DNA of 64,000 nt from Alphaproteobacteria bacterium (GTDB lineage: Bacteria > Pseudomonadota > Alphaproteobacteria > SP197): assembly GCA_965228895.1 (NCBI GenBank), contig OZ245842.1, positions 640,001 through 704,000 of the forward strand, given 5' to 3'. Shown in pieces: positions 36,420-59,230 of the stretch (positions are counted from its first letter, which is position 1; each line of letters begins with the position of its first letter). The notes under the pieces were generated by a model. The model was given only the letters and a program-made list of their open reading frames with translations, made no database searches and was not told the DNA's origin. The position numbers and the translations under genes are program-made.

Positions 36420-37901
36420 TCAGGGTGCGACAAACAGGGCTGGTGTCGCCGTTTGCGCGAGATCATCACCGATGTCGGCAAGCATAGCCACGGTCCGCCG
36501 TATGTCGTCTTCCGTGGTGCGCGGGTTGATTGTGCAAAGGCGCAAGACCGTTTGACCACGCAGTTCCGTCGATGTCACGACCGCCTCACCGCTGGCCAGG
36601 ATGGCACGCGCGATGTCACGGTTGATACCGTTGACCATGTCGTGGCTCATCTGTTCGTTGCCGGTGTAGCAGAACGTCACCACGCCGAGGCAGGCCGGCG
36701 ACGTCAGAGTTAACCGGGCATCGCTGTGGATCTCGGCCTCTGCCAGCTCGGCGAGCTCAATGCCGCGGTCGACGGCTTGTTTGACGGCGTCCAGACCGAA
36801 ACATTGCAGGGTCATCCATAGTTTTAACGCGCGGAAACCACGGCTTAGCTGGATGCCGTAATCGCAGAAGTTGACCTCGCCGCCCTCGGTCACCGTGTCT
36901 TGCATGTAGTCGGCCTCGACCTTGAAGGTGTCGGCCAAGAGCATTTTGTCGCGCACCAGGACCGCGCCGATTTCGAACGGCTGAAACAACCACTTGTGGG
37001 GATCGAGCACGAGCGAGTCGGCGTGGGAAAGGCCATCCAGCAGTTGGTCCGAACGGTTACCGAGTGCCGCGGACGCGCCATAGGCGCCGTCGATGTGGAG
37101 CCACATGCCGGTCTCACCGCAAAAATCGGCGAGCGCGTTCATCGGGTCGACCGCACCGGTGTTGGTGGTGCCCGCATTGGCAACGACGCAGAACGGGCGG
37201 CGTCCGCTTTCGCGATCCTCGTTGACGGCGCGGCGGAGGCTCGCCGGATCGAGCCGGAACGCATCATCGCAATCGAGTCGGCGCAGCTGGTGTTTGGCAA
37301 ACCCGAGCAAAAAGAGCGCCTTGTCGACGGATGCGTGAACCTGATCGGAGCAATAAACAACCGCATCGTCTGTCTTGTCGTTGAGCACGGCGTGTCGGGC
37401 GACCGCCAACCCCGTCAGGTTGGCGACGGAACCGCCACTGACAAACAGACCGCCGGCGCCATTGGGAAGACCGGTCATCCGGCACATCCATTCGATCATG
37501 GCGAGCTCCAGCGATGCCGGACCGGAACTCTCAAGCCAGGAGCCCGTGAAGACGTTGAAGCCGGATGCCAGTGTGTCGGCAAGCACGCCATAGAAATTGC
37601 TCGGGCCGGGTACGAACGCGAAGTAGCGCGGATGGTTACACAGCAGGCTGTTGCCGAAGACATCGCGCTGAACCTGTTCGAGCACCTGATCGAACGGGCG
37701 GCCTCTCGCGGGTGGTTCGCCGGCAAAGAGCTTCGCGAGCTCGTCTTGATCGCCGACATGGCCGACGGGCTCGTCCTTGAGCGTGGCGAGATGGTCTACC
37801 ACGGCATCGATAGCGGCATGCCCATCGGTCCGCATGCGTTCAAGGTCAGGTTCGAGCCGCTTGTCGGCACCTGATGGTGGGGGAGCCGCGCGGTCGTTCA
37901 T
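36420..37901 (-). CDS. Group II PLP-dependent decarboxylase (aromatic amino acid/DDC-like)
   Basis: HPRYFAF, SGGS.AN, HIDGAYG, DPHKW, SRGFRALKLW. Confidence 0.9.
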   Translation of the reverse strand: MNDRAAPPPSGADKRLEPDLERMRTDGHAAIDAVVDHLATLKDEPVGHVGDQDELAKLFAGEPPARGRPFDQVLEQVQRDVFGNSLLCNHPRYFAFVPGPSNFYGVLADTLASGFNVFTGSWLESSGPASLELAMIEWMCRMTGLPNGAGGLFVSGGSVANLTGLAVARHAVLNDKTDDAVVYCSDQVHASVDKALFLLGFAKHQLRRLDCDDAFRLDPASLRRAVNEDRESGRRPFCVVANAGTTNTGAVDPMNALADFCGETGMWLHIDGAYGASAALGNRSDQLLDGLSHADSLVLDPHKWLFQPFEIGAVLVRDKMLLADTFKVEADYMQDTVTEGGEVNFCDYGIQLSRGFRALKLWMTLQCFGLDAVKQAVDRGIELAELAEAEIHSDARLTLTSPACLGVVTFCYTGNEQMSHDMVNGINRDIARAILASGEAVVTSTELRGQTVLRLCTINPRTTEDDIRRTVAMLADIGDDLAQTATPALFVAP

Positions 37902-39355
37902 GAAGCGGTACCCAGGATGTCATCGAGCCGTGCTTTCAAGCCGTCGACCAGGGTGGTCGCGCCGGCCTCGTGCCACATGTCGACATCGGAGCGGGCAAAA
38001 AGCGACGGCAGCCACATTTCGTTCAGGTAGCGACCATGGGTGTGTTCGTCAGTCAGAAAACTGTTGTCCTGGGCGGCACGGGCGATGACATCGACGGCCA
38101 GGCTGGCTTCATCGACGGTGATTCCGGCGGCAAACCGGCTTGCCATGCCGGCCAATTCGTCGGCCAGCACGAGCATTTCGAGCGAACCGGTCCGTCCGGC
38201 CGAGAGATAACCGAGATTGTGCACAAAGGAGGTGCCGGAGAGGACCGCTGTCGTCATGTTCGACGCAGCCTCGGCCGCAGCCTGTTGATCGACCACATGG
38301 GCATCGCTGCAGCCGGCCGCGACCCAACTGGGCAGGCCGAGATGGGCGAAGAACTCGGCGGCACCGAGCCCGGCCTGGCTATACTCCGGCGACCCATAGG
38401 CGAGATCGGCGCGGCGCATGTCCATAGGCAGGATCGCCGTGCCGGACATCAGCGGCGCGCCCGGCCGCTCGTCCTGATGAATAACCAGACCGGCCAAGGT
38501 CTCTGCCGTCGATTGGGCAATCGATCCGGCCAATGTGATCGGCCCGGACATGCCGGGAAAAAGCGCGGGATAGCAGACGATCGGCAGGGACAGGCGTGCG
38601 GCGTCGCGTAATCGGCGGCAGGTCTCGCTTCCCAGCTTCAGGGGCGACACCGGTCCGACCAGATCAATGCCGGTGGGCTTGTCCGCGAGCGCATCGTCGC
38701 CGCCGGCGATGTCACTTAGATGACGCCAGATACGCCGGGTGACCGTCTCGTCATGGCCGGTAAACGCGACCGGCTTGACGGTGTTCTCGACCAGGGTGCT
38801 GACGGTAATGACGGCTTCATCCTCCGGCGGCACGTCGCTTGGAAAACCGAGGGATGCCGCGACATCGATATTGGCCAGGGCTTCACAGACCTTGCCCGTG
38901 GCGGCGATGTCGTCGAGAACGCATGGCCGGTGCTCGCCGGTGCGATGGTCGAGGGTCTTGATGCAGTTAACCCCTGGGCCGAAGCGCGGCACCGCGTCCG
39001 ACGTATCCATCGCCAGGCGCCCGTTTCGGTCGTAGAGCATGACGTTGGAGGGCGCGCTCTCCAGCGCTGCCTCGACAAGATCGGTCATCATCAGCAACCG
39101 CCCGGCATCGCCTTCGCGGCAGCCTGGCCGCGCCAGCAGGATATCCCGGGTCTCATCATCTTCGACGATGACTCCGACCTTCTCCAGGATCGCAAGCGTC
39201 GCCGCACGCAACAGGTTGAGGTCACTCTCGTTGAACAGCCGCAGGCGCAGGGTCGTGGCAAAGCGGCTGGCCGGTGGCGGTGTTTCCTTTTTGCGACGTC
39301 GCCTCCGAGGCTGCGCCTCCGGTGCTTGTTCGATACCGGTTTGTTGTACGGTCAT
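37898..39355 (-). CDS. Trimethylamine methyltransferase (MttB) superfamily protein, non-pyrrolysine
   Basis: PVSPL, GPITLAG, YGSPE, DQQAAAE, FLTDEHT; no in-frame TAG. Confidence 0.85.
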   Translation of the reverse strand: MTVQQTGIEQAPEAQPRRRRRKKETPPPASRFATTLRLRLFNESDLNLLRAATLAILEKVGVIVEDDETRDILLARPGCREGDAGRLLMMTDLVEAALESAPSNVMLYDRNGRLAMDTSDAVPRFGPGVNCIKTLDHRTGEHRPCVLDDIAATGKVCEALANIDVAASLGFPSDVPPEDEAVITVSTLVENTVKPVAFTGHDETVTRRIWRHLSDIAGGDDALADKPTGIDLVGPVSPLKLGSETCRRLRDAARLSLPIVCYPALFPGMSGPITLAGSIAQSTAETLAGLVIHQDERPGAPLMSGTAILPMDMRRADLAYGSPEYSQAGLGAAEFFAHLGLPSWVAAGCSDAHVVDQQAAAEAASNMTTAVLSGTSFVHNLGYLSAGRTGSLEMLVLADELAGMASRFAAGITVDEASLAVDVIARAAQDNSFLTDEHTHGRYLNEMWLPSLFARSDVDMWHEAGATTLVDGLKARLDDILGTAS

Positions 39356-39951
39356 GCTGCCGTTGTCCCACCGCCATAGCGGCCGATGGTCTCCCCGCCG
39401 ATCTGAATGCCAAGGGCGTTGATGATGCGCGCCCAGTAGGCAAAGCAGGCGGCGGCCTGGGCGGTCTCCAGGATCTCGACATCGCTGGCGCCGGCATTGC
39501 GGGCCGCAGCGACGTCCTGTTCCGTCATGTCGCCGGGAGTTTGGTTCAGCTTGTGGGCATAGGTGACGAGGGCGGCGAGCTTGGCGTCCAGAACATCCGC
39601 GTGCTTGCCGGCGACGGTGGCATCCAGCATGGCGTCCGCCTTGGCAGCGTCACCGACCAGGTCGCGCAGGTTGGCCGCGTGATGGGTCGTCGCGTAGTGG
39701 CAGTCGCAAAGCCGCGCGACCATGGTGCCGACCAGTTCCAGGAACCAGTCGGGCATGTCGCTGTCGGGATTGTGGAGAATGGCGCGGTAGTGGCCGTCGG
39801 CCCACAGAATGGGCTCCGGCCGCAACGACATCGCCTTATAAAGATTATGCACGGAACCGTCCGCACGGCGGATCTTTTCATACGTCTCGGCAAGAGCGCC
39901 CTCGGCGTCCTCCGGTTCTACGACATCGAGCCAACAGATCGCTTCGGCCAT
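39352..39951 (-). CDS. AhpD/carboxymuconolactone decarboxylase-like peroxidase-related protein
   Basis: C..Y...H motif (CDCHYATTHH), VHNLY..SLRP, ARIINALG. Confidence 0.75.
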   Translation of the reverse strand: MAEAICWLDVVEPEDAEGALAETYEKIRRADGSVHNLYKAMSLRPEPILWADGHYRAILHNPDSDMPDWFLELVGTMVARLCDCHYATTHHAANLRDLVGDAAKADAMLDATVAGKHADVLDAKLAALVTYAHKLNQTPGDMTEQDVAAARNAGASDVEILETAQAAACFAYWARIINALGIQIGGETIGRYGGGTTAA

Positions 39952-40040
39952 GGCACAGTTCCTCCCGGCGGCCCGCCTGGACTCCCTGGCCGGCGGGCTC
40001 TGATCCGTCAGCCTAAGAACCGATCCGGTCACCCGTCAAG

Positions 40041-40054
40041 ACTGTGATCACAGT
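40041..40054. promoter_or_regulatory. GntR-type operator candidate 1
   Basis: Perfect palindrome ACTGTGATCACAGT upstream of the ahpD-mttB-decarboxylase operon. Confidence 0.75.
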
Positions 40055-40062
40055 TTTGCGGA

Positions 40063-41133
40063 TCAAAGGCCGATTTCCCAGCACGGCTCGAAGGCGCGGG
40101 CGGCGCCGGCATGGCTGTCGCGCAGGGCAACCATGTCGTCACGGTCGAGAAACGCAAACCGGCCGTCCTGCCACAGGGGCTCGCCTTCGAACGTGATCGT
40201 GGCGTCGATCAGCACCGGTGAGATTTCGCCCGGCGGGTAGTCGCCGCAGGTATGAAAATGTGTATAGCGCGGGCTGTTGAAAGCGACCGTGCCCCAGCGG
40301 GTCAGCGAGTCGGCGACGCGCTGGTCGTACCACGTCTTCGGGTGGATGCCTGCGTGCCAGGAATGGACGTTCCGGCCGTCGATTCCGAACAGCCCGGCGA
40401 CGTAGTCGTAATGGTTCTCGACTCGTTTGGCCTCGGGCCCGGTGAAGCCTGAGATACGGCCGCCGTCGATCTCCAGAACGACCGGTTCATCGACGACGAA
40501 TCCGGCGGGCTCATAGACCCGGTTGAGCGTCGGGCTGATCCAGCGTGTCGCCAGGCGTCCAGCCATGTCGCCGGCGCCGAGCGGGCGGAAAACCCCGATG
40601 GGGAACAGTCCCACGGTGAAATCGCCGTCCTGGCTGTCGGGTTCGAACGGCGCTGACGTGGCCTCAAGATCGGTGCCCATGGGGCATGTGATGTGCCAAG
40701 TGCCGCCCTTCGCGATGCGCTTGTTGAGACGGTCCAGGACATCGGCCATCAGGCCGTGGGGCACCCGGCAGAAGTCGGATCCCAACAGGTCGAGATTGAG
40801 CGCGTAGGTCATGGTTTTGCTGCAATGGCCGGGCGTCTCGCAGAACCGGAACTGATCGCCGATCCGGGCGAAAAAGACCGTGTGATCGACCGCCTGCATG
40901 GCCTCGGCCACCGAATCGGGGAAGTGTTGCGGGCCATCCAGGGCGGGCGCCATCAGGGTTTCGGCCTGGCATCCGATGTCTGCTGCAACGCCGCTCACAA
41001 AGTCAGCGACCGACGGATCGTAGTCATCGCCACCGTCGCTCTTCACCACCAGCACGCGGTCGCCGGCAGCGGCCCCAATACAGGCCTGAAGCAGGTTGAG
41101 AGCGCCGGCCTCGGCCCTTGCCTGATTATCCAT
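40063..41133 (-). CDS. Uncharacterised metalloprotein, possibly peptidase M29/NicX-like fold
   Basis: ITCPMGTDL, EPVVLEIDGGRI, His-rich HSWHAGIHP and HFHTCG, DATITFEG. Confidence 0.5.
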   Translation of the reverse strand: MDNQARAEAGALNLLQACIGAAAGDRVLVVKSDGGDDYDPSVADFVSGVAADIGCQAETLMAPALDGPQHFPDSVAEAMQAVDHTVFFARIGDQFRFCETPGHCSKTMTYALNLDLLGSDFCRVPHGLMADVLDRLNKRIAKGGTWHITCPMGTDLEATSAPFEPDSQDGDFTVGLFPIGVFRPLGAGDMAGRLATRWISPTLNRVYEPAGFVVDEPVVLEIDGGRISGFTGPEAKRVENHYDYVAGLFGIDGRNVHSWHAGIHPKTWYDQRVADSLTRWGTVAFNSPRYTHFHTCGDYPPGEISPVLIDATITFEGEPLWQDGRFAFLDRDDMVALRDSHAGAARAFEPCWEIGL

Positions 41134-41159
41134 GGCACCTTGCCTCCTTATCATCGGAG

Positions 41160-41177
41160 AATCTGTGATCACAGATT
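41160..41177. promoter_or_regulatory. GntR-type operator candidate 2, overlapping a possible -35 box
   Basis: Perfect 18-bp palindrome AATCTGTGATCACAGATT; TTGACA at 41176-41181. Confidence 0.8.
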
Positions 41178-41218
41178 GACATACATGCCTCCGCCTGAGC
41201 AAATTGCCGTTGAATACT

Positions 41219-42475
41219 ATGACCGGCTACTCCTTCTTTCGCCTCGCGGCAAGCGCCTTGGGCGTCGCCCAATCCGACGGTCCCGTCTTCGGTCGAGCGG
41301 TGCCCAAGCCGCGCTATGACGTGGTCATCGTCGGTGGCGGCGGTCATGGGCTGGCGACCGCGTACTATTTGGCCAAGCAACACGGCATCACCGATGTCGC
41401 GGTGATCGAGAAGGGCTGGCTCGGCGGCGGCAACACCGGACGCAACACCACGATCGTGCGCGCCGACTATCTGTTGCCGGGCAACCGGGAATTCTTCGGC
41501 CACGCGCTTGCCATGTGGCCCGGTCTGTCGCGCGAGCTCAACTTCAACATCATGTTCAGCCCGCGCGGTTATCTCGATCTCGCCCACACCGACGGCCAGC
41601 TCGACCACTTCATCCGCCGCGCCAACGGCTTGCGGCTCAACGGCATCGAGGCGCGTATTGTCGACCTCAAGACCTTGCGCGACTTGGAACCGGCCCTGGC
41701 GATCGGGCCGGAGCCGCCGGTCCCGGTCCTCGGTGGCTTGGTGCAGGACGGTGCGGGAACCGCGCGCCACGATGCCGTGGCCTGGGGTTATGCGCGCGGT
41801 GCCCACGGGCTCGGGGTCGACATCGTTCAGAACTGCGAGGTCACCGGCTTCAAGTTCGCGAGCGGGCGCATCGCCGGTGTCGAGACCGATCGCGGCACCA
41901 TCGCGACCGATACGGTCGTGGTCTCCGTCGCCGGTCATTCCAGCCGGGTAGCTGCCTTGGCCGGCCTTGCCCTGCCGATCGAAACCTACGCGGTGCAGGC
42001 CTTTGTCAGCGAACCGCTGAAGCCCGTTCTGCGGCGCGTCACCAACATGAATATCGGCTTTGCCTATGCCAGTCAGACCGACAAGGGCGAGATCGTCATG
42101 GGCGGCAACCTCGAGCCCTTGGCGAGCTATGCCCAGCGCGGCAGCATCGTGCGCGTCGGTGAGGTCGCGGCGAAGCTGGTGCACATCCTGCCGTTCCTCA
42201 GCCGCGTGCGCCTGATGCGCGCATGGAGCGGCATCGCCGATATCGCGGCGGACGGCAGCGCCATCGTCGGACCGACGCCGGTCGGCGGCCTCTATCTGAA
42301 CGCCGGATGGGGGTACTCGGGCTTCAAGGCAACGCCGGCGGCGGGCTGGTGCATGGCCCACACGGTGGCGAGCGGCAAGCCCCATCCCCTAATCGAACCT
42401 TTCTGCCTTGACCGGTTCGCGACCGGTGCCCTGCTCGACGAAGGCGGCACCGGCCCCTACACCTGGCTGCACTGA
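41219..42475 (+). CDS. soxB: Heterotetrameric sarcosine oxidase-like beta subunit
   Basis: GGGGHGL, NTGRNTT, ARHDAVAWGYA, GFKATP. Confidence 0.85.
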   Translation: MTGYSFFRLAASALGVAQSDGPVFGRAVPKPRYDVVIVGGGGHGLATAYYLAKQHGITDVAVIEKGWLGGGNTGRNTTIVRADYLLPGNREFFGHALAMWPGLSRELNFNIMFSPRGYLDLAHTDGQLDHFIRRANGLRLNGIEARIVDLKTLRDLEPALAIGPEPPVPVLGGLVQDGAGTARHDAVAWGYARGAHGLGVDIVQNCEVTGFKFASGRIAGVETDRGTIATDTVVVSVAGHSSRVAALAGLALPIETYAVQAFVSEPLKPVLRRVTNMNIGFAYASQTDKGEIVMGGNLEPLASYAQRGSIVRVGEVAAKLVHILPFLSRVRLMRAWSGIADIAADGSAIVGPTPVGGLYLNAGWGYSGFKATPAAGWCMAHTVASGKPHPLIEPFCLDRFATGALLDEGGTGPYTWLH

Positions 42476-42484: not shown

Positions 42485-42742
42485 ATGCTGATCATCCCTT
42501 GCCCCTGGTGCGGCGCGCGCGACGAAAGCGAGTTCAGCTATGGCGGTACAGCGCAACCCCTGCCACCGCTCGATGCGGACGCCGCTGCTTGGCAGCGCGC
42601 ACTTTATGTCCACGACAATCCCAAGGACTGGCACGAGGATCTGTGGTTTCACGCGTTCGGTTGCGAACGCTGGTTTGTCGTGCGCCGCCACACGGTGACC
42701 CAGGAGATCGCCGGTAGCGCACCGCCGGGGAACCGGCCATGA
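42485..42742 (+). CDS. soxD: Sarcosine oxidase-like delta subunit
   Basis: CPWCG, EFSYGG, W.H..GC Zn ligands. Confidence 0.88.
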   Translation: MLIIPCPWCGARDESEFSYGGTAQPLPPLDADAAAWQRALYVHDNPKDWHEDLWFHAFGCERWFVVRRHTVTQEIAGSAPPGNRP

Positions 42743-45708: not shown

Positions 45709-46187
45709 CGAAACTCGCGGAACACACGCTGCTCGCTGTACTGCGCCTGCGCGGGCGGGAGACAGGTGACGGTCCGCCAGCAGGGATCGATCTGCCGTTG
45801 CCGCCAGATGTTGGTCAGGCCGGCCATCAAGGCGCCCGCAGTGTTGTTAAGGTCGAACCGGGTGAGTGGCTTGTCGTACAGCGCAACCACGAGTCGGAAC
45901 CGGCGTCGTCAGGCTTTCCCGGCGAGGTGGCCGCCTTCGATGAAAGTGGCGCCTGGCGATTACTCAGTCTGGAAGGCAGCGCGGCCCGCGATGTCGTCGC
46001 GCAATTCTGCCCGATCGATTTCCAGACGACAGGGATGGATGAGGTATGCGGCTTTGCAACACAGCTCAGCGGCCATCCCGTTGTGGTCTTTCCCCGCTCT
46101 GGCGCGCTGATCGAAATCCTGGTTCGCCGCAGCTATGCGGCGTCGCTAGTGGCGTTGATCAACGACGCGATCGTCCGGTCTCCTTGA
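45705..46187 (+). CDS. soxG: Sarcosine oxidase-like gamma subunit (short, divergent)
   Basis: PGEWLV, D.SG, CPIDF, VRRSYA; position after soxA. Confidence 0.7.
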   Translation: MTKLAEHTLLAVLRLRGRETGDGPPAGIDLPLPPDVGQAGHQGARSVVKVEPGEWLVVQRNHESEPASSGFPGEVAAFDESGAWRLLSLEGSAARDVVAQFCPIDFQTTGMDEVCGFATQLSGHPVVVFPRSGALIEILVRRSYAASLVALINDAIVRSP

Positions 46188-48515: not shown

Positions 48516-48517
48516 GA

Positions 48518-50437: not shown

Positions 50438-52036
50438 TTAGCTCTGGGCGCCCTCGATCCACGCGGTACGCGCAAACTGGTAGAAACCAAGCGGACCGGA
50501 CGGATGAGGCGTGATGCCCTGGACCTCGGAACGACCGGCGTCCAGGTAGTCGATGAAGGCCATGGTGATGTGACCGCCATCGTCCTGGATCATGCGCTGG
50601 AGCTGGCAATACATCTCCTTGCGCTTGTCGAAATCGGTGACGCCGCGGGCTTCGACCATGATCTTGTCGAAGTCCTCGTTGTTCCACGCGGTTTCGTTGT
50701 AGGCCGCGCCGCCGGCAAAGGCGATCGACAGGATGAGATCGGGAACCGGACGGCCGTCCCAGCCGGACACACATGCCGGTTTCGCCATCCACGCTGTCTG
50801 CCAATAGGTGTCGGCCGGCGGCTGAACGATGTTGAGGTCGATGCCGGCCGCCCGTGCGGATTCCTGGAACACCTGGGCGCTGGCCAGGCCGCCCTGGCCG
50901 GGCACGTCAGAGGCATAGAAATCGATCGGTGTGCCGGACAAGCCCGTCTTCTCGAAGTGGAACTTGGCCTTATCGGGATCATAGGCACGCTGTTCGATAT
51001 CGCTGCAGTAATAGGGATCAATCGGCGAAATCGGGTGATCGTTGCCGACATGACCGAAACCCTTCATCACGTTGTTGACGATCGCGTCGCGATCGATGGC
51101 GTACTTCATCGCCATGCGGAAGTCGGGATCGTTTGTCGGCTCGCGGTCCAGCATCATGGCGACGTTCAGGAACGAGGCGCTCCTGGCGTTCAGCACATTG
51201 ACGTCGTCGCGCTGATCGATCAGGTCGACGGCCTTCGGATCGAGATAAAGCAGCAGGTTGATGTCGTCGGACAACAGCGCGTTGGTGCGCGCCGTCGGGT
51301 CGCCGATACCCACGGTCTCGATCTCGTCGACATAGGGCCCGTCATCGCCCCAATAGTCGTCGTTGCGTTCGAAGATATAGGTCGAACCGGCTTTGAACTC
51401 CTTGACCTTGTAGGGCCCGGTGCCCGACGTGTTGGTCGAGAAGTCGGTCCAGCCGTCCTGGACGATCTGTACGCGTGTATCGCTCAATACAATCGGAAAA
51501 TCCGCGTTGGGCGATGACAGCATGAACTTGACGACGTTGTCGCCGTCCTTGGTCATCTCCGTGATCTGGTTCAGGTACGCCTTGGCCGGCGATTCGGACT
51601 CTTCCGCCAGATGGCGATTGAACGAATAGATGACGTCATCGGCGCTGAAGATCTTGCCGCTGTGGAAGGTGACGCCGTCGCGCAACTGGAACGTCCATTC
51701 CGTCGCGTCCGCGCTGGGTTCCCAGCTGGTCGCGAGCCACGGTATCGGACGCAGGTCTTCGCCGCGATTGACCATCAGGTCGTACACCGTGAAGCCACGC
51801 AGCAGATCGGCGGTCGAATAGAACCCCGTCGGGTCGAGCGTGTCGATGTTCAGCGCCGACTCGACACCGACCGTGATGCGTCCGCCCATTTCCGGCGATT
51901 GCGCCTTGGCGGCGCTGGTGATCAAGCCAGGCAGGACCGCGGCGCCGACACCGGCCGCTGCCAGGCGGCCGGAGAACTCGCGCCGCGAGATGCGCCGCTT
52001 GATGAACAGATCCGTCAGATACTTGATTTGCGACAT
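50438..52036 (-). CDS. DppA-like (family 5) substrate-binding protein, Tat-exported
   Basis: SRREF Tat motif, LRDGVTFH, GTGPY; start MSQIK with gagg RBS. Confidence 0.9.
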   Translation of the reverse strand: MSQIKYLTDLFIKRRISRREFSGRLAAAGVGAAVLPGLITSAAKAQSPEMGGRITVGVESALNIDTLDPTGFYSTADLLRGFTVYDLMVNRGEDLRPIPWLATSWEPSADATEWTFQLRDGVTFHSGKIFSADDVIYSFNRHLAEESESPAKAYLNQITEMTKDGDNVVKFMLSSPNADFPIVLSDTRVQIVQDGWTDFSTNTSGTGPYKVKEFKAGSTYIFERNDDYWGDDGPYVDEIETVGIGDPTARTNALLSDDINLLLYLDPKAVDLIDQRDDVNVLNARSASFLNVAMMLDREPTNDPDFRMAMKYAIDRDAIVNNVMKGFGHVGNDHPISPIDPYYCSDIEQRAYDPDKAKFHFEKTGLSGTPIDFYASDVPGQGGLASAQVFQESARAAGIDLNIVQPPADTYWQTAWMAKPACVSGWDGRPVPDLILSIAFAGGAAYNETAWNNEDFDKIMVEARGVTDFDKRKEMYCQLQRMIQDDGGHITMAFIDYLDAGRSEVQGITPHPSGPLGFYQFARTAWIEGAQS

Positions 52037-52097: not shown

Positions 52098-52108
52098 CTG
52101 TGATCACA
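52098..52108. promoter_or_regulatory. GntR-type operator candidate 3
   Basis: CTGTGATCACA upstream of the dppA-like gene. Confidence 0.7.
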
Positions 52109-52173
52109 CATTCTAGGCGCTTGCTGGAACGATTCAAGGCCGCTTGATCACCCGGCCTGCCCGTCGGAGCAAA

Positions 52174-53730
52174 TCACGCCCCGGTTCGCGCGATCTCCTC
52201 CTTGCGCTGCGCCATGTAGTCGCGCAGTTCTTCGTCGATCGCCGGGTCGAGGGCCGGCGGCTCATAATTTGCCAACAGCGATTTCCAGATGCTGTTGGCG
52301 CGCTTGGCGGTGTCTTCGGAACCGCGCTCTTTCCAGCTCTCGAAGTTGTCCCAGTCCGACAAAAGCGGTGCGTAGAACGCATTTTCGTAACGCGCCAGCG
52401 TATGAGCCGCGCCCAGGAAGTGGCCGCCGGGGTCAACCTCGGCAAACGCGGCGGCGCCTAGTTCGTCGGGGCTTGTAACGATCGGCACCAGGGTCTCGGC
52501 CATCATCTGCAGCATCTCGGCGTCCAGGATCAGTTTCTCGAACGAGCAGACGAGGCCGCCCTCGAGCCAGCCGGCGGCGTGCAGAACCAGATTCGTGTGG
52601 GCGAGAATGCAGCCCCATAACGACATGCCACTCTCATAAGCAGCTTGGCCGTCGACAGCCTTTGACGCGGTCGTGTTGCTGGAGCGAAAGGCGCAGCCGT
52701 AGCGGCGTGCCATCTGCGCCGTCGCCAGAGTCAGTTTGACGTATTCGGGTGTCCCGAATGCGGGCGCGCCGGTCTTCATGTCGACATTGGTGGCGAAGTG
52801 ACCGTAGATCACCGGCACGCCCCGTCGTACCGCCTGAACCAGCACGGCGCCCAGCAGAAATTCGGCGTTCTGCTGGACCAGCGTAGCGGCCAGGGTCGCC
52901 GGGCTCATGGCACCGGCCAGCGTGAACGGGGTCAGGCAAACCGGCTGTCCAAGCCGCGCCAGCTCTATCATGCCCTCGGCCATGGCGCCGTCCAGGACCA
53001 GCGGCGAGTTGGTGTTGACGCCCGACATGATGGTCGGTGTCGCGGCCAAGGTGTCGTGATCCATGCCCAAACCGATGCGCGTCATCTCGAAGACATCGCG
53101 GGCGCGCGGGCCGCTGTTGAGCCAGCAAGGATGCCATGACTTATCGGTCAACGTGATCTGCGCGTACATCATGTCCATGTGACGCGATTCCGGCGGCAGA
53201 TCGAGCGGTTCGAAACCGGCGCCGCCGTCGAAATGCAGAATATTGAGCGACTGGACCAGGCGCACGACATCGCACATCTCGCGATAGGTGCCGGCACGCC
53301 GGCCGTTGTCGAGATCGCTGACGAACGAGGGGCCGCAGACCGATGCGAAGGTGATGGCATCGCCGCCGACCTCGATCGACTTGGCGGGGTCGCGGGCGAT
53401 CGCCGTGTAACCGCCAGGCAGGCCGGTCATGGTTTCGTCGATCAGTGCGGGATCGAACCTGACCCGGCCGTCCTCGTCGTCGACGTCCGCTCCCAGGCAG
53501 CGCAGGTGATCGCGTGACGGCGGATCCAGCACGACCATGCCGACATCGCGCAGCAGGTCGAGCGAGGCGCGATGAATGTCCTCGATCTGGTCATCGCTCA
53601 AGATCGCGACCGGCGGATAGGGATTGCGGACGGTCTTGAACGGTATCTGCGCGATGGTGTCCTGGTCCTGGCGGCGCCGGTTGCGTCGATCACGGCCGCG
53701 CTGGCGGACTTTACCTGTCGATGCACCCAT
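52174..53730 (-). CDS. MttB-superfamily methyltransferase (alphaproteobacterial MtgB-like), non-pyrrolysine
   Basis: NTNSPL, TPFTLAGAMSP, GAPAFGTPE, HAAGWLEGGL, GGHFLG. Confidence 0.9.
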   Translation of the reverse strand: MGASTGKVRQRGRDRRNRRRQDQDTIAQIPFKTVRNPYPPVAILSDDQIEDIHRASLDLLRDVGMVVLDPPSRDHLRCLGADVDDEDGRVRFDPALIDETMTGLPGGYTAIARDPAKSIEVGGDAITFASVCGPSFVSDLDNGRRAGTYREMCDVVRLVQSLNILHFDGGAGFEPLDLPPESRHMDMMYAQITLTDKSWHPCWLNSGPRARDVFEMTRIGLGMDHDTLAATPTIMSGVNTNSPLVLDGAMAEGMIELARLGQPVCLTPFTLAGAMSPATLAATLVQQNAEFLLGAVLVQAVRRGVPVIYGHFATNVDMKTGAPAFGTPEYVKLTLATAQMARRYGCAFRSSNTTASKAVDGQAAYESGMSLWGCILAHTNLVLHAAGWLEGGLVCSFEKLILDAEMLQMMAETLVPIVTSPDELGAAAFAEVDPGGHFLGAAHTLARYENAFYAPLLSDWDNFESWKERGSEDTAKRANSIWKSLLANYEPPALDPAIDEELRDYMAQRKEEIARTGA

Positions 53731-53808: not shown

Positions 53809-53824
53809 AACTGTGATCACAGTT
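53809..53824. promoter_or_regulatory. GntR-type operator candidate 4
   Basis: Perfect palindrome AACTGTGATCACAGTT in the divergent mttB/TMADH-like gap. Confidence 0.8.
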
Positions 53825-53859: not shown

Positions 53860-55950
53860 ATGACATCGAGTTCACCTTCATCGACGTCGCGCGATCCGCG
53901 CTATGACATTCTGTTCGAACCGGTTCAGATCGGTCCGGTGACCGCGAAGAACCGTTTCTATCAGGTTCCTCATGCGACGGGCACCGGTTCGGCGATGCCG
54001 AACACCCGTGCCGGTATCCGCGAGGTAAAGGCCGAGGGCGGTTGGGCTGTCGTATGCACGGGCTATTGTTCCATCCATCCGACGTCGGACGACCGCCACT
54101 ATCCGTTTTCCAGCCTATGGAACGATGCCGATATCAACGCGCAGGCGGTCATGGTCGATGCGGTTCACCGCCATGGCGCGCTGGCCGGCGTCGAGCTGTG
54201 GCACGGCGGCGGCGTGGTCGCCAACAAGGTGACGCGTGAGTCGCCGATTTCGCCGTCCGGCCTTGGCGAGCCGGTCTGGGTGACCCACCCCATTCAGCCG
54301 CGCGCCATGGACAAGGCCGATATCGACGACCTGCTGACATGGCAGAAAGAAGCCGCCCTGCGGGCGCGCTCGGCCGGGTTCGATATCGTCTATGTCTACG
54401 CCGGCATGGGTTACCTGCCGTTCCAATTCCTGGTGTCGCGCTACAACAAACGCACGGACACCTATGGCGGTACGTTCGAGAACCGTGCCCGGCTGTTACG
54501 CGAGATGATCGAGGTGACGCGTGATGCGGTCGGTCCGGACTGCGCCGTCGCCGTTCGTTTGACCGCCGAGGAGAATATGGGCGCCCAAGGTTTTCGAGGC
54601 GAGGTCGAGGGCGAGGCGCTGCTCGACCTGATCGGCGACATGCCGGACCTGTGGGATGTCAAACTGGGGTTCACCGGCGATGGCGTGACCTCACGTTTTG
54701 CCGATGAGGCCTATCACGAGCCCTTCGTGCGCTACGTCAAGGCCAAGACCGGGAAGCCGGTTGTCGGTGTCGGCCGTTTTACATCGCCCGATACCATGGT
54801 GCGCCAGATCAAGAGTGGCGTGCTCGACCTGATCGGCGCGGCGCGGCCGTCGATCGCCGACCCGTTTCTGCCCCAGAAGATCGAACAGGGCCGGATCGAC
54901 GAGATCCGCGAGTGCATTGGCTGCAACGTCTGTGTCGCGACTTATGCGGAAGGCGTGCCGATCCGCTGTACCCAGAACCCGACCATGGGCGAGGAATGGC
55001 GACGCGGCTGGCATCCCGAACGGATCGCGACGCGCGGCAGCGACGACAGCGTGCTGGTGGTCGGGTCGGGGCCGGCAGGCCTGGAATGTGCGCGCGCGCT
55101 GGGCCAACGCGGCTATGACGTGACATTGGCCGAAGCAGGTGGTGAGCTCGGCGGACGCGTGACCAGGGAAAGCCGTCTGCCGGGCCTGGCCGCCTGGGCA
55201 CGCGTGCGCGACTGGCGGCTGGGCCGGCTCGACACCATGCCCGGCGTCGAGATCTATCGCGACAGCCGCCTGACCGCCGCGAATGTCGTGGAACTGGCGC
55301 CCCAGCGCGTTGTGCTGGCGACCGGCGCGCGTTGGAAGACGGAACTGCCTGAAGGTCTGGAAGGCGTGCCGGAGATCGCGTCCGGCATCACCGTCATGAC
55401 ACCCGATGATGTCATGGACGGTAGGGCGCCATCCGGCGACGTCCTCGTCCTGGATTTGGATCCCTACTACATGGGCGGCGTGATCGCCGAAAAATTGGCG
55501 CGTGACGGCCATGCTGTCCGCCTTGTCACGCCCAACACGGCGATCTCGCCATGGACGGCGCTGACCGAAGAACAGCATCGGATCATGGTTCGCCTGCTGG
55601 AACTCGGTGTCGATGTCGTCACGACCCATCATCTGCTGGGCCTCGACGGTGGCGGCGCTCGCATCGCGTCCGTGTACGACGGCAAGGTACAGGCGTTGCC
55701 TTGCGACACGCTGGTCCTCGTCGGCACCCGCGCACCGGTCGACGGATTGGCGCGCGCGTTGGAGGAACGCAGCGGCGATGTCGCGGCCGCGGGCATCCGT
55801 GACATCACGCGCATCGGTGATGTTTATGCCCCCGGCGCGATTGTCCACGCTGTCGCGTCAGGTCACCGCTATGCACGAGAACTGGATGCCAACGATCTCA
55901 CCGTACGCATCGAACCGGGTGGCGGCTCCTATGAAGCAAGGAGGGTGTGA
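53860..55950 (+). CDS. Trimethylamine/histamine dehydrogenase-family iron-sulfur flavoprotein
   Basis: RDPRYDILFEP, KNRFYQVPH, KAEGGW, 4Fe-4S motif CIGCNVC...CTQNP, GEEWRRGWHPE. Confidence 0.88.
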   Translation: MTSSSPSSTSRDPRYDILFEPVQIGPVTAKNRFYQVPHATGTGSAMPNTRAGIREVKAEGGWAVVCTGYCSIHPTSDDRHYPFSSLWNDADINAQAVMVDAVHRHGALAGVELWHGGGVVANKVTRESPISPSGLGEPVWVTHPIQPRAMDKADIDDLLTWQKEAALRARSAGFDIVYVYAGMGYLPFQFLVSRYNKRTDTYGGTFENRARLLREMIEVTRDAVGPDCAVAVRLTAEENMGAQGFRGEVEGEALLDLIGDMPDLWDVKLGFTGDGVTSRFADEAYHEPFVRYVKAKTGKPVVGVGRFTSPDTMVRQIKSGVLDLIGAARPSIADPFLPQKIEQGRIDEIRECIGCNVCVATYAEGVPIRCTQNPTMGEEWRRGWHPERIATRGSDDSVLVVGSGPAGLECARALGQRGYDVTLAEAGGELGGRVTRESRLPGLAAWARVRDWRLGRLDTMPGVEIYRDSRLTAANVVELAPQRVVLATGARWKTELPEGLEGVPEIASGITVMTPDDVMDGRAPSGDVLVLDLDPYYMGGVIAEKLARDGHAVRLVTPNTAISPWTALTEEQHRIMVRLLELGVDVVTTHHLLGLDGGGARIASVYDGKVQALPCDTLVLVGTRAPVDGLARALEERSGDVAAAGIRDITRIGDVYAPGAIVHAVASGHRYARELDANDLTVRIEPGGGSYEARRV

Positions 55951-55953
55951 ACC

Positions 55954-57201
55954 GTGGCCTATGCTGACCCCTTCCATGTTGCCAAGAAAACGCCGGGTGC
56001 CGGACTCAAGGATTTCGAGCCGCAGATCGACATGCACCGCATGCGGCGCTACCGCCTTGACCGCGTGCGCCAGGAGCTGGCACGGCGCGATATCCCAGCC
56101 TGCGTACTCTATGACATGGCGAACATCCGTTATGCGACCGGCACCCGAAACATGGCGGTCTTCACCGGGCACTATCCGACACGTTATGTCTTCGTCGCCG
56201 CCGATGGACCGGTCATTCTGTTCGACAACGAATCAGGCCCGAGCCCGGCTGACTTCTCCGGTACCGTCGACGAGCTGCGACCCGCCAAACAGTGGTATTA
56301 CGAGGCTCATGGCGAACATGTCGCCGACGCGGCAAAAGCCTGGGCCGACGAGATCAACGATCTCTTGAGTCAGTTTGGCGGCGCCAGCCGCCGGCTCGCC
56401 GTCGATCGGCTGGGCGCCATGGGTTTCGTGCCGCTGGCCGCCCATGGCATCGAAATTTGTGACGGCCAGGCAGTGCTCGAACTGGCGCGGGTCATCAAGT
56501 CGCCCGATGAAATCGCCTGCATGTGCGTTTCGGTCGCGGTTTGCGAGATTGGCGTCGCCCGCATGCGCGAGGCCATGCGGCCCGGCATGTCGGAGCAGCA
56601 GCTCTGGTCTGTCATGGCCAACGTCAACAACGAGATGGGCGGCGAGTGGATGGAGACGCGGCTGCTGACGTCCGGCGGCCGCACCAATCCGTGGTATCAG
56701 GAATGCGGCGAGAAACTGATCAGGAGCGGCGAGCTTGTCGCCTTCGACACCGACATGATCGGGCCGTTCGGCTATTGCTGCGACATCTCCAGGACCTTCC
56801 TGTGCGGGCCGTCGAAACCGACCGATGAGCAGAAACGGCTCTACGGCTTGGCCCATGCGCAGGTCGAACACAACATCGCGCTTCTGAAACCCGGCGTAAC
56901 ATTCCGCGAACTCAGCGACCAAGGCTTCAAGGTGCCCGACGCGTTCTTAGCCAATCGCTATTCCTGTTTGATGCACGGTGTCGGCCTGGTCGACGAATAT
57001 CCGGACGTCGTCCATCCGCTCGATTGGCACGAATTCACCGCCGATGGTGTGATCGAGGAAGATATGGTCCTGAGTGTCGAAAGCTATATCGGCGAAATCG
57101 GTGGCTCCGAAGGCGTCAAGCTGGAAGAGCAGGTTCTGGTGACCGCCGATGGTGTCCAGCGCCTCTCCATGTTCCCCTTTGAGGACGACCTGCTGGCATG
57201 A
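55954..57201 (+). CDS. M24-fold protein resembling DMSP lyase DddP
   Basis: NIRYATG..NM, ETRLLTSG.RTNPWYQE, FDTD, DISRT, MHGVGLVDEYP, VES, KLEEQV. Confidence 0.78.
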   Translation: MAYADPFHVAKKTPGAGLKDFEPQIDMHRMRRYRLDRVRQELARRDIPACVLYDMANIRYATGTRNMAVFTGHYPTRYVFVAADGPVILFDNESGPSPADFSGTVDELRPAKQWYYEAHGEHVADAAKAWADEINDLLSQFGGASRRLAVDRLGAMGFVPLAAHGIEICDGQAVLELARVIKSPDEIACMCVSVAVCEIGVARMREAMRPGMSEQQLWSVMANVNNEMGGEWMETRLLTSGGRTNPWYQECGEKLIRSGELVAFDTDMIGPFGYCCDISRTFLCGPSKPTDEQKRLYGLAHAQVEHNIALLKPGVTFRELSDQGFKVPDAFLANRYSCLMHGVGLVDEYPDVVHPLDWHEFTADGVIEEDMVLSVESYIGEIGGSEGVKLEEQVLVTADGVQRLSMFPFEDDLLA

Positions 57202-57863
57202 CCTACCGCCTCTACCTCGCACCCAATACCTACGCCTTGACGGTCCAAGCGTTGCTCGAGGAACTGGCCGTGCCCCATGAGCTCGTCTGGGTCGGGATCT
57301 TCCAGGACACACCGGACCCGGTGCTCCAAGAGCGCAGCCCCCATCTCAGGGTTCCCGCGCTGGAAGGCGATGGTCTCGTCGTTGTCGAAACGGGTGCAAT
57401 CGCGCTCTATGTCGCCGAACGTCACGGTGACGGCGCGTTAGTGATCCCGCCAGGCGAACCCGACCGGGCGCGATTTCTGCAGTGGCTGCACTACCTGGCG
57501 AGTACGCTCCAGCCCGATGTCTTGATCCAGTTCCATCCGGAGTTCTATGCCGAGGACAAGCCGACGCAGGATCGGATCATGAAGGCGTCAATGGCGCGCC
57601 TGGAAGGTGTCTTCGATGTGCTCAATGACGCGCTTGATCCCGGCCCATATTTTTTTGGCGAGAGACTGACGGTGCTCGATTTTCTGTTCGGCATGCAGGC
57701 GACGTGGCCGGAAATCTATCCGCGCCCCATTGAGGCTTATCCCAACCTGCTGCGCCACCAACAGACCATGCTGGCACGCACGGCGGTGCGCCGAACGCTT
57801 GACATTCACGCCGCCAAACTGCGCGAGCAGGGGCGGTCATTGGAGCTGGCGCTGCCACTTTGA
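57198..57863 (+). CDS. Glutathione S-transferase family protein
   Basis: RVPAL, ETGAIALY, FLQWL, YFFGE..T..D. Confidence 0.85.
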   Translation: MTYRLYLAPNTYALTVQALLEELAVPHELVWVGIFQDTPDPVLQERSPHLRVPALEGDGLVVVETGAIALYVAERHGDGALVIPPGEPDRARFLQWLHYLASTLQPDVLIQFHPEFYAEDKPTQDRIMKASMARLEGVFDVLNDALDPGPYFFGERLTVLDFLFGMQATWPEIYPRPIEAYPNLLRHQQTMLARTAVRRTLDIHAAKLREQGRSLELALPL

Positions 57864-57907
57864 CAAGACACCCCTGGCTGCGGCGCACAACGAGGGAGAG
57901 ACCCGCG

Positions 57908-59230
57908 ATGGCATCCAATCTGCGTTACACCGGCTATTACGAAACACAAGACGCCGGCATTGACGAGGAACTCGCGCGGGTCGGCCGTGGGACGCCATGC
58001 GGCGAATACATGCGCCGCTTCTGGCACCCCGTCGCCATGACGTCCCAGGTCAAGGACGTGCCGCTTCTGATCCGTCGCTTCGGCGAGGACCTCATCCTGT
58101 TCCGCGATAAGCAGGGACGTTATGGGCTGGTGCATCGCCACTGCCCCCATCGCAACGCGTCGCTGGAGTACGGCATCCCGACCGAATGTGGCATCCGTTG
58201 CTGCTATCACGGCTGGCACTTCGACGTCGACGGCACGTTGTTGGAAGCGCCCGCCGAGGCCGATGATACGAAAATCAGGCAGCAAGTGCGGCTGGGCGCC
58301 TATCCGGTGCGCGAGTACCGTGGCCTCGTCTTCGCCTATATGGGTCCGCCGGAGGAGGAGCCGGCGTTTCCGATCTACGATACCTTCGAGATTGAAGACG
58401 GCGAGCTCGTCCCTTACGAGGTCACGCAGCCCTGCAACTGGCTGCAGATCGCCGAGAACTCGTGCGATCCCATGCATGTCGTCTTCCTGCACACGCGCGT
58501 CAACATCGTGCAGTTCACCGAAAAACTGGGCTATTGGCCGGTCATGGACTGGCGCGAACGCCCGATCGGCCTGTTCTATACGAAGGCGCGGCGGGTCAAC
58601 GATTACATCTGGATCTCGACCAACGACGTCATCCTGCCGAACTTCACCCAGGCCGGCGCGGTCTATGAGAACACCGACGGTACCGAACCCAAATACTTCG
58701 GCCGCTGCTCGTTCACCCGCTGGGTCGTGCCGATCGACGACACGCATACGACAATTCTGGCCTACCGCCATTTCAACAAACGCGCAGAGACCGCGCGCGA
58801 CGAATGGCGGACGCCCGAGGCACTCGAGAAGATCGACATCGGCGAGTTGAGGAGCCGCCCCTACGAGGAACGCCAGCGCAACCCCGGCGACTACGAGGCG
58901 TTCGTCGGTCAGGGACCGATCTCACCGCACAAACGTGAGAACCTCGTGACATCCGACAAGGGTGTCGCGATGTACCGCCTGCGGCTGCGCAACGAGATCA
59001 AGAAACTCCAGGCCGGAGAGGCACCTCTTCAACCGGCGGCCTACGTCGATAACCCGATCCCGACCTATGGCAGCGACACGGTCATTCGCTTGCCGGAGTC
59101 AGACGACGACGAGGACGCGATTGCGGCGCTGCAACGCAAGGTCGGCGATGTCTACGAGTCGGCGGACAAGATCAAAGGAGAGGCCCGCTACGACTATCTC
59201 GCCGAACACCTCGCGCTGCTCAACACCTAG
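57908..59230 (+). CDS. Rieske non-heme iron oxygenase alpha subunit (phthalate dioxygenase-like group)
   Basis: Rieske CPHR...CCYHGW; mononuclear Fe EN..DPMHVVFLH; SDKG. Confidence 0.9.
   Translation: MASNLRYTGYYETQDAGIDEELARVGRGTPCGEYMRRFWHPVAMTSQVKDVPLLIRRFGEDLILFRDKQGRYGLVHRHCPHRNASLEYGIPTECGIRCCYHGWHFDVDGTLLEAPAEADDTKIRQQVRLGAYPVREYRGLVFAYMGPPEEEPAFPIYDTFEIEDGELVPYEVTQPCNWLQIAENSCDPMHVVFLHTRVNIVQFTEKLGYWPVMDWRERPIGLFYTKARRVNDYIWISTNDVILPNFTQAGAVYENTDGTEPKYFGRCSFTRWVVPIDDTHTTILAYRHFNKRAETARDEWRTPEALEKIDIGELRSRPYEERQRNPGDYEAFVGQGPISPHKRENLVTSDKGVAMYRLRLRNEIKKLQAGEAPLQPAAYVDNPIPTYGSDTVIRLPESDDDEDAIAALQRKVGDVYESADKIKGEARYDYLAEHLALLNT

Follow-up and report, generated by a model that had tools for sequence, protein, structure and literature searches.

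We analysed a 64-kb window (64,000 nucleotides of contig OZ245842.1 from an Alphaproteobacteria bacterium) in which the block between 36.4 and 59.2 kb carries 23 kb of genes with predicted roles in uptake and N-demethylation, together with a recurrent palindrome and a gene for a regulator of the GntR/FCD family. The window contains exactly four copies of the palindrome's 10-mer TGTGATCACA (at 40043, 41164, 52099 and 53812), all of them within 40-54 kb, whereas 100 shuffles of the window gave an expectation of 0.03 copies and no shuffle reached four. Three of the sites, at 40042, 41163 and 53811, extend to the exact 12-mer CTGTGATCACAG, and the one at 52098 reads CTGTGATCACAC. When up to two mismatches were allowed, the window yielded 19 matches against 24 expected, indicating that there is no background of weaker copies elsewhere. 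An earlier note on this DNA had described four intergenic palindromes, one for each transcription unit, and this description holds, with its coordinates off by 0-3 bases.

Operators, regulator and importer

The four operators are all intergenic and jointly cover every transcription unit between 36.4 and 59.2 kb. Operator 1 (CTGTGATCACAG, 40042..40053) occupies the 30-bp gap between a gene for an uncharacterised NicX/M29-fold protein (here termed Unk) and an AhpD-like open reading frame (ORF), the first of the AhpD-like-mttB1-decarboxylase unit. Operator 2 (CTGTGATCACAG, 41163..41174) lies where the NicX/M29-like gene (ATG at 41133) and soxBDAG (soxB ATG at 41219) diverge. Operator 3 (CTGTGATCACAC, 52098..52109) is found 62 nt upstream of the ATG of a binding-protein gene (52036), at the head of the binding protein-dppBC-dppDF-gntR operon. 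Finally, operator 4 (CTGTGATCACAG, 53811..53822), in the divergent region between mttB2 (ATG at 53730) and a gene for an enzyme similar to trimethylamine dehydrogenase (TMADH; ATG at 53860), adjoins both mttB2 and the TMADH-like-M24-GST-Rieske operon, GST being a glutathione S-transferase. Gene starts were fixed by alignment with orthologues, and in related loci the placement of motifs was read from a homology-based gene-order table.

The operator is a perfect palindrome whose GT and AC arms stand four bases apart (TGT-GATC-ACA). Its half-sites, TGTGA and TCACA, abut without a spacer, and the central GATC holds a TGATCA (BclI) site, as is the case for all the related sites described below. These half-sites are those of the Escherichia coli CRP consensus. 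Consensus scans turned up three promoter-like sites against an expectation of 0.2, all in contact with an operator: operator 4 lies inside the spacer of a minus-strand TTGACG-18-CATCAT and also just after the -10 element of a plus-strand TCGACA-17-GATGAT, and operator 3 lies just after the -10 element of a TTGAAT-16-TAGAAT. Given that three of the four operators overlap promoter-like hexamers or abut them, the GntR protein would most likely act as a repressor.

The GntR/FCD regulator (46159..46866, minus strand) is encoded by the last gene of the importer operon, which has operator 3 upstream, and both of its domains score above cut-off (PF00392, 50 bits; PF07729, 79 bits). The other genes of this operon, also on the minus strand, encode a fused DppD/F-type ATP-binding cassette (ABC) ATPase with two ABC_tran domains and oligo_HPY (46866..48521), a DppC-type permease (48518-49372) and a DppB-type permease (49373-50326), the permeases being recognised by BPD_transp_1, OppC_N and BPD_transp_1_N, and a family-5 solute-binding protein with a twin-arginine-type leader (50438..52036; SBP_bac_5, 275 bits; start from alignment). 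The Arg355 and Asp408 residues of E. coli DppA hold the termini of the bound peptide. In a low-identity alignment with DppA (132 bits), the first of these positions falls in a gap of our binding protein and the second is occupied by Arg or a gap; because neither residue is kept, the protein is probably not an ordinary dipeptide binder.

Distribution of the operator in related loci

A DNA-level search of the 22.8-kb block against plasmids returned only short ABC-transporter matches, with no synteny, and protein-level searches were therefore needed. A search of plasmids with the MttB2 protein led to a plasmid of Leisingera thetidis (L001), and a profile search of genome contigs, built on an alignment of the window and Leisingera binding proteins, gave 80 loci. 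We refer to loci whose binding protein is at least 50% identical as related (n = 18; L003-L019 and L028) and to the remaining 62 as other loci; the presence or absence of orthologues was counted over 82 loci. The related loci include those of Leisingera, Roseovarius, Albidovulum, Pseudoprimorskyibacter, Rhodospirillales, a metagenome-assembled genome (MAG) of Puniceispirillales, and unclassified alphaproteobacteria; L019 is 92-93% identical. The distribution of the cluster is patchy, and it is often plasmid-borne.

The earlier note had proposed the conservation of the cluster as a check, and this check came out in its favor. The exact 10-mer occurs 46 times in the 268,431 bp of the related loci and twice in the 1,048,652 bp of the other loci, and both of the latter copies are situated just upstream of a 40%-identical binding protein (L031). 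At least one copy is present in 17 of the 18 related loci. A simple ORF caller, which over-extends gene starts in high-GC loci, put seven of the 46 sites within ORFs; by the homology-based table, all seven lie between genes. The Leisingera plasmid has five exact copies and one with a single mismatch, against 0.45 expected, and all six are found between genes. This plasmid encodes soxADB, the NicX-like and AhpD-like proteins, GST, the binding protein, GntR, the permeases and ATPase, and a DAO+GCV_T enzyme resembling dimethylglycine dehydrogenase (DMGDH), as well as an Asp/Glu-racemase-family protein, MttB2 and a Rieske protein. In related loci the motif flanks the GntR orthologue on both sides, is present in the NicX-like/soxB divergent region, often as two copies 57-58 bp apart, and also precedes Rieske genes. 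When 50 sites were combined in a symmetrised logo, the palindrome grew to 16 bp, A(0.83)-W-C(0.96)-TGTGATCACA-G-W-T.

Similar enzyme genes under other regulators lack the palindrome. It was not found in a Mesorhizobium plasmid carrying a TetR-linked TMADH-like/mttB2 pair nor, even with one mismatch allowed, in a LysR/GlxA plasmid cluster of Sinorhizobium meliloti (mttB 44% and M24 45.5% identical to those of the window) or in the LysR-linked NicX-like-GST-sox modules of Ruegeria and Paracoccus seriniphilus plasmids. Since these TetR- and LysR-controlled variants are without the motif, it follows GntR, rather than the enzymes as such. The window and Leisingera GntR proteins are 44% identical overall, and their helix-turn-helix stretch is nearly identical. 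These comparisons support the proposal, already made in the earlier note, that the palindromes mark a single regulon belonging with the internal GntR/FCD gene: motif, regulator and enzymes travel together, and the motif is gone where TetR or LysR takes the regulator's place.

A binder other than this GntR, either a CRP/FNR-type global regulator or a second GntR/FCD protein encoded at 60797-61735, would account for the same palindrome, the CRP-like half-sites speaking for the former and the position of the second gene, 1.6 kb beyond the block, for the latter. We nevertheless consider such a binder highly improbable. The half-sites have a spacing of 0, as opposed to 6 for CRP; the motif is confined to the gene set of the regulon (46 versus 2 sites) and accompanies orthologues of the first GntR; and the second GntR is only 24% identical to the first and has an orthologue in L019 alone. 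The ORF of the second regulator has a long, probably spurious N-terminal extension. It belongs to a stretch beyond the block (59579-63830) that also encodes an SBP_bac_8 binding protein, which is conserved in L019 along with the regulator, a short-chain dehydrogenase/reductase (SDR) and an enolase-superfamily enzyme of the MR/MLE group.

Several loci show other arrangements of these genes. In a Rhodospirillales MAG (L003, 134-3460), the position that soxBDAG has in other loci, divergent from the NicX-like gene and behind the operator, is taken by an operon for a 4Fe-4S protein, a molybdopterin oxidoreductase and a protein of the Asp/Glu-racemase family. The LysR-controlled variant on plasmids of Ruegeria sp. 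SCSIO 43209 (L085) and Paracoccus seriniphilus (L086) consists of a polar amino-acid ABC importer, the NicX-like gene, GST (annotated in L086 only), soxBDAG, the AhpD-like gene and a Rieske gene; L086 has in addition purU with soxBDAG and a DoeB-like deacylase, and no adjacent mttB. The AhpD-like-mttB1 pair also recurs where the remainder of the regulon is missing, namely in L036, L038 and L039 (at about 4.2-6.6 kb) and in L031 (68-1495). The pair in L036 adjoins a TauD-family dioxygenase, a glutamine-synthetase-like gene, a class-III aminotransferase, an N-formylglutamate amidohydrolase and a rhodanese protein, and L031 has a rhodanese gene ahead of two operator copies.

Demethylases, core proteins and lineage-specific genes

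Proteins were assigned to families with Pfam and NCBIfam. All of the families listed in the earlier note were recovered in this way, except that soxD was recognised as an 85-aa ORF and the M29-like protein by its fold. The conserved core comprises the binding protein, the Dpp permeases and ATPase, GntR, GST, mttB2, the NicX-like and AhpD-like genes and soxBDA(G), along with a DMGDH-like or TMADH-like demethylase; mttB1 is found in 12 loci.

Two members of the MttB superfamily, 25% identical to each other, are encoded on the minus strand. MttB1 (37898..39355; Pfam MTTB, 225 bits) is deep-branching and equally far from its two best PDB matches, glycine betaine methyltransferase (162 bits) and trimethylamine methyltransferase (155 bits). 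It has orthologues of 50-55% identity in 12 related loci, and at least 386 relatives with generic names only. MttB2 (52174..53730; Pfam MTTB, 616 bits) looks canonical, matches 4yyc (353 bits) and glycine betaine methyltransferase 9yce (295 bits), and has orthologues of 54-61% identity in related loci. Neither gene has a pyrrolysine codon: both ORFs are uninterrupted, with no in-frame amber codon, and PF06253 extends across the whole protein.

The sox genes, on the plus strand, are in the order B-D-A-G. They encode a SoxB-family beta subunit (41219..42475; TIGR01373, 547.5 bits against a cut-off of 529.45), a SoxD-like delta subunit (42485..42742), which is the 85-aa ORF between soxB and soxA and has tblastn matches to annotated "sarcosine oxidase subunit delta" proteins in related loci, a SoxA-family alpha subunit (42739..45708) with a folate-binding GCV_T domain as well as SO_alpha_A3 and Fer2_4 (TIGR01372, 1155.7 bits, just below the cut-off of 1164), and a SoxG-like gamma subunit (45705..46187), assigned mainly by position (TIGR01375, 49.7 bits, below the cut-off of 143.95). 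Sox-like heterotetramers need not act on sarcosine, and can be N-methylglutamate dehydrogenases, according to a recent account of homarine catabolism (PMC13236597).

The Fe-S flavoprotein encoded at 53860..55950 (plus strand) belongs to the TMADH/histamine-dehydrogenase family. Pfam and alignment identify an OYE-type flavin mononucleotide (FMN) domain, an ADP-binding domain and four aligned Fe-S cysteines, and among solved structures the protein is closest to histamine dehydrogenases (3k30, 708 bits; TMADH, 551 bits). The FMN-linking Cys30 is replaced by Ala, as it is in the C30A entry 1djq and in 6l6j. Of the three positions of the substrate bowl, Tyr60 of TMADH is kept, W264/W267 is Phe and W355/D358 is Tyr, giving an aromatic pocket; histamine dehydrogenase presumably carries polar residues at these positions. 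Most relatives have a DMGDH-like enzyme next to mttB2, the TMADH-like one standing there in the window, in L019 and in the Mesorhizobium plasmid. Its genomic position and pocket residues led us to set aside a histamine dehydrogenase function, and the protein is probably an N-methyl amine demethylase, more likely so than a biogenic-amine dehydrogenase.

The last gene of the block encodes the alpha subunit of a phthalate-dioxygenase-like Rieske oxygenase (57860..59230, plus strand; Pfam Rieske; 7fhr, 160 bits; NdmA, DdmC and CntA match less well). Over the 82 loci this Rieske type has an orthologue only in L019; other loci have different types, which across the loci include GbcA-like, VanA-like and phthalate-dioxygenase-like proteins. 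The earlier note had suggested demethylation of a methylated amine or onium compound, and the conservation of four or five demethylating systems supports this, with methyl groups removed successively.

Three further core proteins have less obvious functions. Unk (40063..41133, minus strand) has no Pfam match at E <= 1, and its family profile yielded one irrelevant weak match among PDB sequences, the single-sequence search yielding none. Its nearest ESM Atlas clusters carry NicX/Peptidase_M29. An AF2 (AlphaFold) model based on 10 orthologues had a mean predicted local distance difference test (pLDDT) score of 76.9, and Foldseek matched this predicted model first to NicX (7cn3, E 7e-15, TM 0.54-0.58) and then to the M29 aminopeptidases 1zjc and 4ics (E ~1e-8) and 2ayi. 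Unk is thus predicted to share the fold of the 2,5-dihydroxypyridine dioxygenase NicX and of the M29 aminopeptidases, with a sequence identity to them of 11-16%, and may be an oxygenase or a hydrolase. Residues H260, H292 and H294 are invariant among the 10 orthologues, and the family has at least 817 relatives, all named hypothetical. The AhpD/CMD-like "peroxidase-related" protein (39352..40032, minus strand; TIGR01926, 90 bits against a cut-off of 81.8) aligns with seven orthologues from residue 28 onward, and its true start is likely to be near 39951; one Cys and one His are invariant in a LCxC-YA--xH stretch. The GST (57198..57863, plus strand; Pfam GST_N and GST_C) has orthologues of 49-54% identity in 13 related loci and one of 79% in L019.

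Two genes of the block are restricted in distribution. A group II pyridoxal-phosphate (PLP)-dependent decarboxylase (36420..37901, minus strand) is encoded by the last gene of the AhpD-like/mttB1 unit; it scores 228 bits with Pfam Pyridoxal_deC, and its best NCBIfam is L-2,4-diaminobutyrate decarboxylase, at 229 bits against a cut-off of 900. It has no match in the 82 loci and, judged by this absence, is a lineage-specific addition. An M24 "pita-bread" enzyme with a creatinase-type N-domain (55954..57201, plus strand; Pfam Peptidase_M24 and Creatinase_N) has orthologues only in L019, plus one 50% match in L041. The label "DddP-like lyase", given to it previously, does not fit well: the score with the DddP NCBIfam equivalog is 384.4 bits, below the cut-off of 600, and the enzyme is nearer (45.5% identity) to an M24 protein encoded beside mttB on an S. 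meliloti plasmid (L083). Accessory genes of the loci encode a DoeB-like AstE/AspA deacylase, a PRK07475 protein of the Asp/Glu-racemase family and PhyH-type dioxygenases.

The decarboxylase bears on the possibility that an aromatic amino-acid betaine is demethylated, decarboxylated, amine-oxidised and fed into a homogentisate operon, as the earlier note had in part suggested. This operon (30325-36392; hmgA, fumarylacetoacetase (FAH), a metallo-beta-lactamase-fold protein, a 541-aa flavin adenine dinucleotide (FAD) monooxygenase and a GST) lies directly upstream of the block, and both the presence of a decarboxylase within the regulon and the similarity of the TMADH-like enzyme to histamine dehydrogenase, its best solved relative, would suit such a route. 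We regard it as very unlikely, however. The 82 loci contain no match to the decarboxylase or to hmgA, FAH and the FAD monooxygenase; the homogentisate operon is without an operator, the only match near it being the two-mismatch TGAGGTCACA at 30253, which is at chance level; and the TMADH-like enzyme, with its aromatic Tyr/Phe/Tyr pocket, stands where relatives have a DMGDH-like demethylase. Neither decarboxylation nor amine oxidation finds support as a conserved step, and a link between the regulon and the homogentisate genes was set aside.

The S. meliloti locus on plasmid pB (L083, NZ_CP141214.1) combines an mttB 44% identical to MttB2 and the M24 gene (45.5%) with genes for a GlxA-type regulator, an ABC importer of the glycine-betaine type, an isochorismatase, MR/MLE and Rieske enzymes, a reductase of the Ldh family, a DMGDH-like protein and a GST, and resembles a locus for proline or hydroxyproline betaine in which MttB is employed. 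The window block could likewise serve a stachydrine-type compound, with MttB2 or the Rieske enzyme removing the first methyl group and the TMADH-like or DMGDH-like enzyme the second. The composition of the S. meliloti cluster (mttB, M24, DMGDH-like, importer, MR/MLE and reductase genes) favors this possibility, as does S. meliloti StcD, which we take to be TMADH-like. The scheme published for proline betaine, that of the Hpb system, also pairs a Rieske enzyme with a flavin demethylase (PMC3950512). Even so, proline betaine and its hydroxylated form appear quite unlikely substrates: proline betaine offers only two methyl groups to four conserved demethylating systems, the regulator HpbR of that same account is LysR-type (PMC3950512), and the GST/AhpD/Unk trio is left unexplained. 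An HpbD-type epimerase is also missing from inside the regulon, the MR/MLE gene at 62616 being outside it and 24% identical to that of S. meliloti.

The simplest alternative is plain catabolism of glycine betaine, via dimethylglycine and sarcosine to glycine, under GntR control, in which an MtgB-type MttB, DMGDH or a DgcA-like TMADH-family enzyme, and SoxBDAG would each remove one methyl group, with a GbcA-like Rieske enzyme as an alternative first step. Every demethylase family of the block has a counterpart in known routes, MttB, MtgC, MtgD and gbcAB all appearing in PMC12478193; moreover, the best NCBIfam of the Leisingera Rieske protein is GbcA (141 bits, against a cut-off of 670), and MttB2 scores 295 bits with the solved glycine betaine methyltransferase. 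Nonetheless glycine betaine fits poorly and is unlikely, if the least so of the alternatives. The importer is Dpp-type, as opposed to the BCCT or ProU-type systems reported for Ruegeria pomeroyi (PMC12478193), and the conserved GST, AhpD-like and NicX-fold proteins have no role in glycine betaine breakdown. Nor would this substrate explain two MttB proteins that are 25% identical, a patchy and often plasmid-borne cluster, or a LysR variant that keeps Unk-GST-sox-AhpD with a polar amino-acid importer and has no adjacent MttB.

The remainder of the window contains a few other genes of note. At 9782-12049, one 755-aa ORF joins the large subunit of a B12-dependent diol/glycerol dehydratase to the medium subunit, which gives the organism another cobalamin-dependent enzyme. 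Three S-Me-THD-like (DUF917) paralogues are found at 12972-16758 and 24573-26453, two of which adjoin a hydantoinase-A-type gene and one an Asp/Glu/hydantoin racemase. The 267-aa protein encoded at 1111-1914 has two LCCL domains, a domain that is mostly eukaryotic.

Proposed pathway and comparison with known systems

We propose that the block is a single regulon under the GntR/FCD protein encoded at 46159-46866, serving the uptake and stepwise N-demethylation of a betaine-like compound, and put the probability of this reading at about 0.65. The reading builds on the motif statistics, the gene families and the conserved wiring described above, from which we infer the binding and repression by GntR, the order of the steps and the nature of the substrate. 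A GntR/FCD dimer would bind the 16-bp palindrome A-W-C-TGTGATCACA-G-W-T in four intergenic regions and so control six transcription units, most likely repressing them all, its own operon included, until released by a small carboxylate effector, which may be the substrate or an early intermediate. The family-5 binding protein and Dpp-type importer would take up a compound other than an ordinary dipeptide, and MttB1 and MttB2 could then take one or more methyl groups off a nitrogen, quaternary or tertiary, and hand them to a corrinoid protein whose gene lies elsewhere. Such a division of genes has a precedent in R. pomeroyi, where MtgB proteins of the MttB family pass a methyl group of glycine betaine to the separately encoded corrinoid protein MtgC, and MtgD passes it on to folate (PMC12478193). 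The next methyl group would be removed by the flavoprotein demethylase, TMADH-like here and DMGDH-like in most relatives, and the last by SoxBDAG, which would transfer it onto folate. The NicX/M29-fold protein, a putative metalloenzyme, the AhpD/CMD-like protein and the GST may modify a thiol or amide function of the compound or its carbon skeleton, with ring or thiol chemistry and amide cleavage among the possibilities.

Several observations weigh against this proposal. The link between GntR and the operator is one of co-occurrence alone, and GntR is a predicted binder; moreover, a GntR orthologue was not detected in the fetched parts of L003, L014, L016, L018 and L019, several of which are short contigs, and the 219-aa ORF at the expected position of the regulator in L014 has no Pfam match. 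L018 has neither the motif nor other regulon genes, although its binding protein is 53% identical. The GT-N4-AC core of the palindrome differs from the FadR-type operator consensus, NyGTM-N0-1-KACNy, given in PMC12992908. The promoter matches are weak (9 of 12 consensus positions), and site 2 has no convincing promoter. No genes for a corrinoid protein or a pterin methyltransferase are present in the window or in the loci scanned, so that any MttB activity would depend on partners encoded elsewhere. Lastly, the roles offered for the GST, the AhpD-like protein and Unk are guesses.

A more specific form of the proposal, which we advance tentatively and at somewhat less than even odds, is that the regulon is the missing route for breaking down an N-methylated metabolite abundant in the sea, one for which no degradation genes are known. 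The substrate could then be a thiol-histidine betaine akin to ergothioneine, hercynine or ovothiol, or an N-terminally methylated small peptide or amide. A thiol-histidine betaine would provide roles for the GST, the single-Cys AhpD-like protein and the Rieske enzymes that resemble ring-N-demethylases; rhodanese and HutF/HutG-like genes are found beside relatives. Were this correct, MttB1 would represent a new deep-branching MttB subfamily that opens the pathway, the NicX-fold protein would belong to a new enzyme family with over 800 members, and control of all these genes would lie with a GntR-operator pair that is likewise new.

Phytoplankton and bacteria use methylated nitrogen osmolytes as major currencies of exchange, and the genes for their breakdown are still emerging (MtgBCD for glycine betaine in 2025, homarine in 2026). 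The regulon described here is sharply delimited by a near-invariant operator, is conserved over several alphaproteobacterial lineages, with cultured carriers among Leisingera, Roseovarius and Ruegeria plasmids, such as Leisingera thetidis BMJM1, Leisingera sp. ANG-Vp and ANG-M1, Roseovarius aestuarii KCTC 22174 and Ruegeria sp. SCSIO 43209, and combines cobalamin- and flavin-dependent demethylation with three proteins of unassigned role. Once the substrate is identified, two large protein families that lack names would gain a function, nitrogen and one-carbon cycling in the sea would gain a step that requires cobalamin, the regulator and its operator would provide a biosensor for the compound, and corrections could be made to likely misannotations such as "trimethylamine methyltransferase", "sarcosine oxidase", "DMSP lyase-like" (DMSP, dimethylsulfoniopropionate) and "dipeptide transporter".

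Neither a pathway nor an operator fitting this gene set was found in the published literature by searches on the motif, on MttB with sarcosine oxidase or GntR, on MttB in aerobes, and on MttB with betaine genes of roseobacters, in agreement with the earlier note, which knew of no such pathway. MttB was likewise not found together with ergothioneine or hercynine in any paper, a search on the PDB entry 6l6j gave nothing, and the full-text matches to the 10-mer, among those listed, were eukaryotic, viral or unrelated, with no bacterial operator.

Four described systems invite comparison. The homarine operon homABCDER, accompanied by mgdABCD, is a recently discovered and widely conserved marine osmolyte operon whose last step is carried out by a Sox-like heterotetramer, so that proteins annotated as "sarcosine oxidase" may in fact be dehydrogenases of other N-methyl amino acids; homABCDER was rejected as a match to the block because its set of the FAD protein HomA, HomB, a peptidase and an aldehyde dehydrogenase is unlike ours (PMC13236597), and its scheme offers no place for the GST/AhpD/NicX-like trio. 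The HpbA-HpbD/HpbR system shares with the window the stepwise N-demethylation by a Rieske enzyme and a flavoprotein and the presence of an ABC importer, but the importer is of another type, the regulator is LysR-type, and MttB, a Sox complex and the GST/AhpD/NicX-like trio are not part of it (PMC3950512).

DmdR, a FadR-type regulator from the DMSP demethylation system of the Roseobacter group, resembles the regulator of the window in being a GntR-superfamily protein whose gene lies among or next to its catabolic genes, with palindromic boxes at promoters, and is an autoregulated repressor (PMC12992908). Its boxes, TTAAATGTCAGAC, fit the NyGTM-N0-1-KACNy consensus, in contrast to the window operator AWCTGTGATCACAGWT; its targets also differ from those in the window, and its effector is acryloyl-CoA (PMC12992908).

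The window can also be compared with MtgB, MtgC and MtgD of R. pomeroyi, in which, as proposed here, a non-pyrrolysine MttB of an aerobic alphaproteobacterium has its partners encoded elsewhere and is followed by DMGDH- and Sox-type steps (PMC12478193). The mttB genes of the window, however, belong to a GntR regulon with a Dpp-type importer, GST, AhpD-like and NicX-fold proteins, whereas the MtgB system has a BCCT transporter and its description makes no mention of a GntR regulator (PMC12478193). MttB1 itself is as far from MtgB as it is from true MttB.

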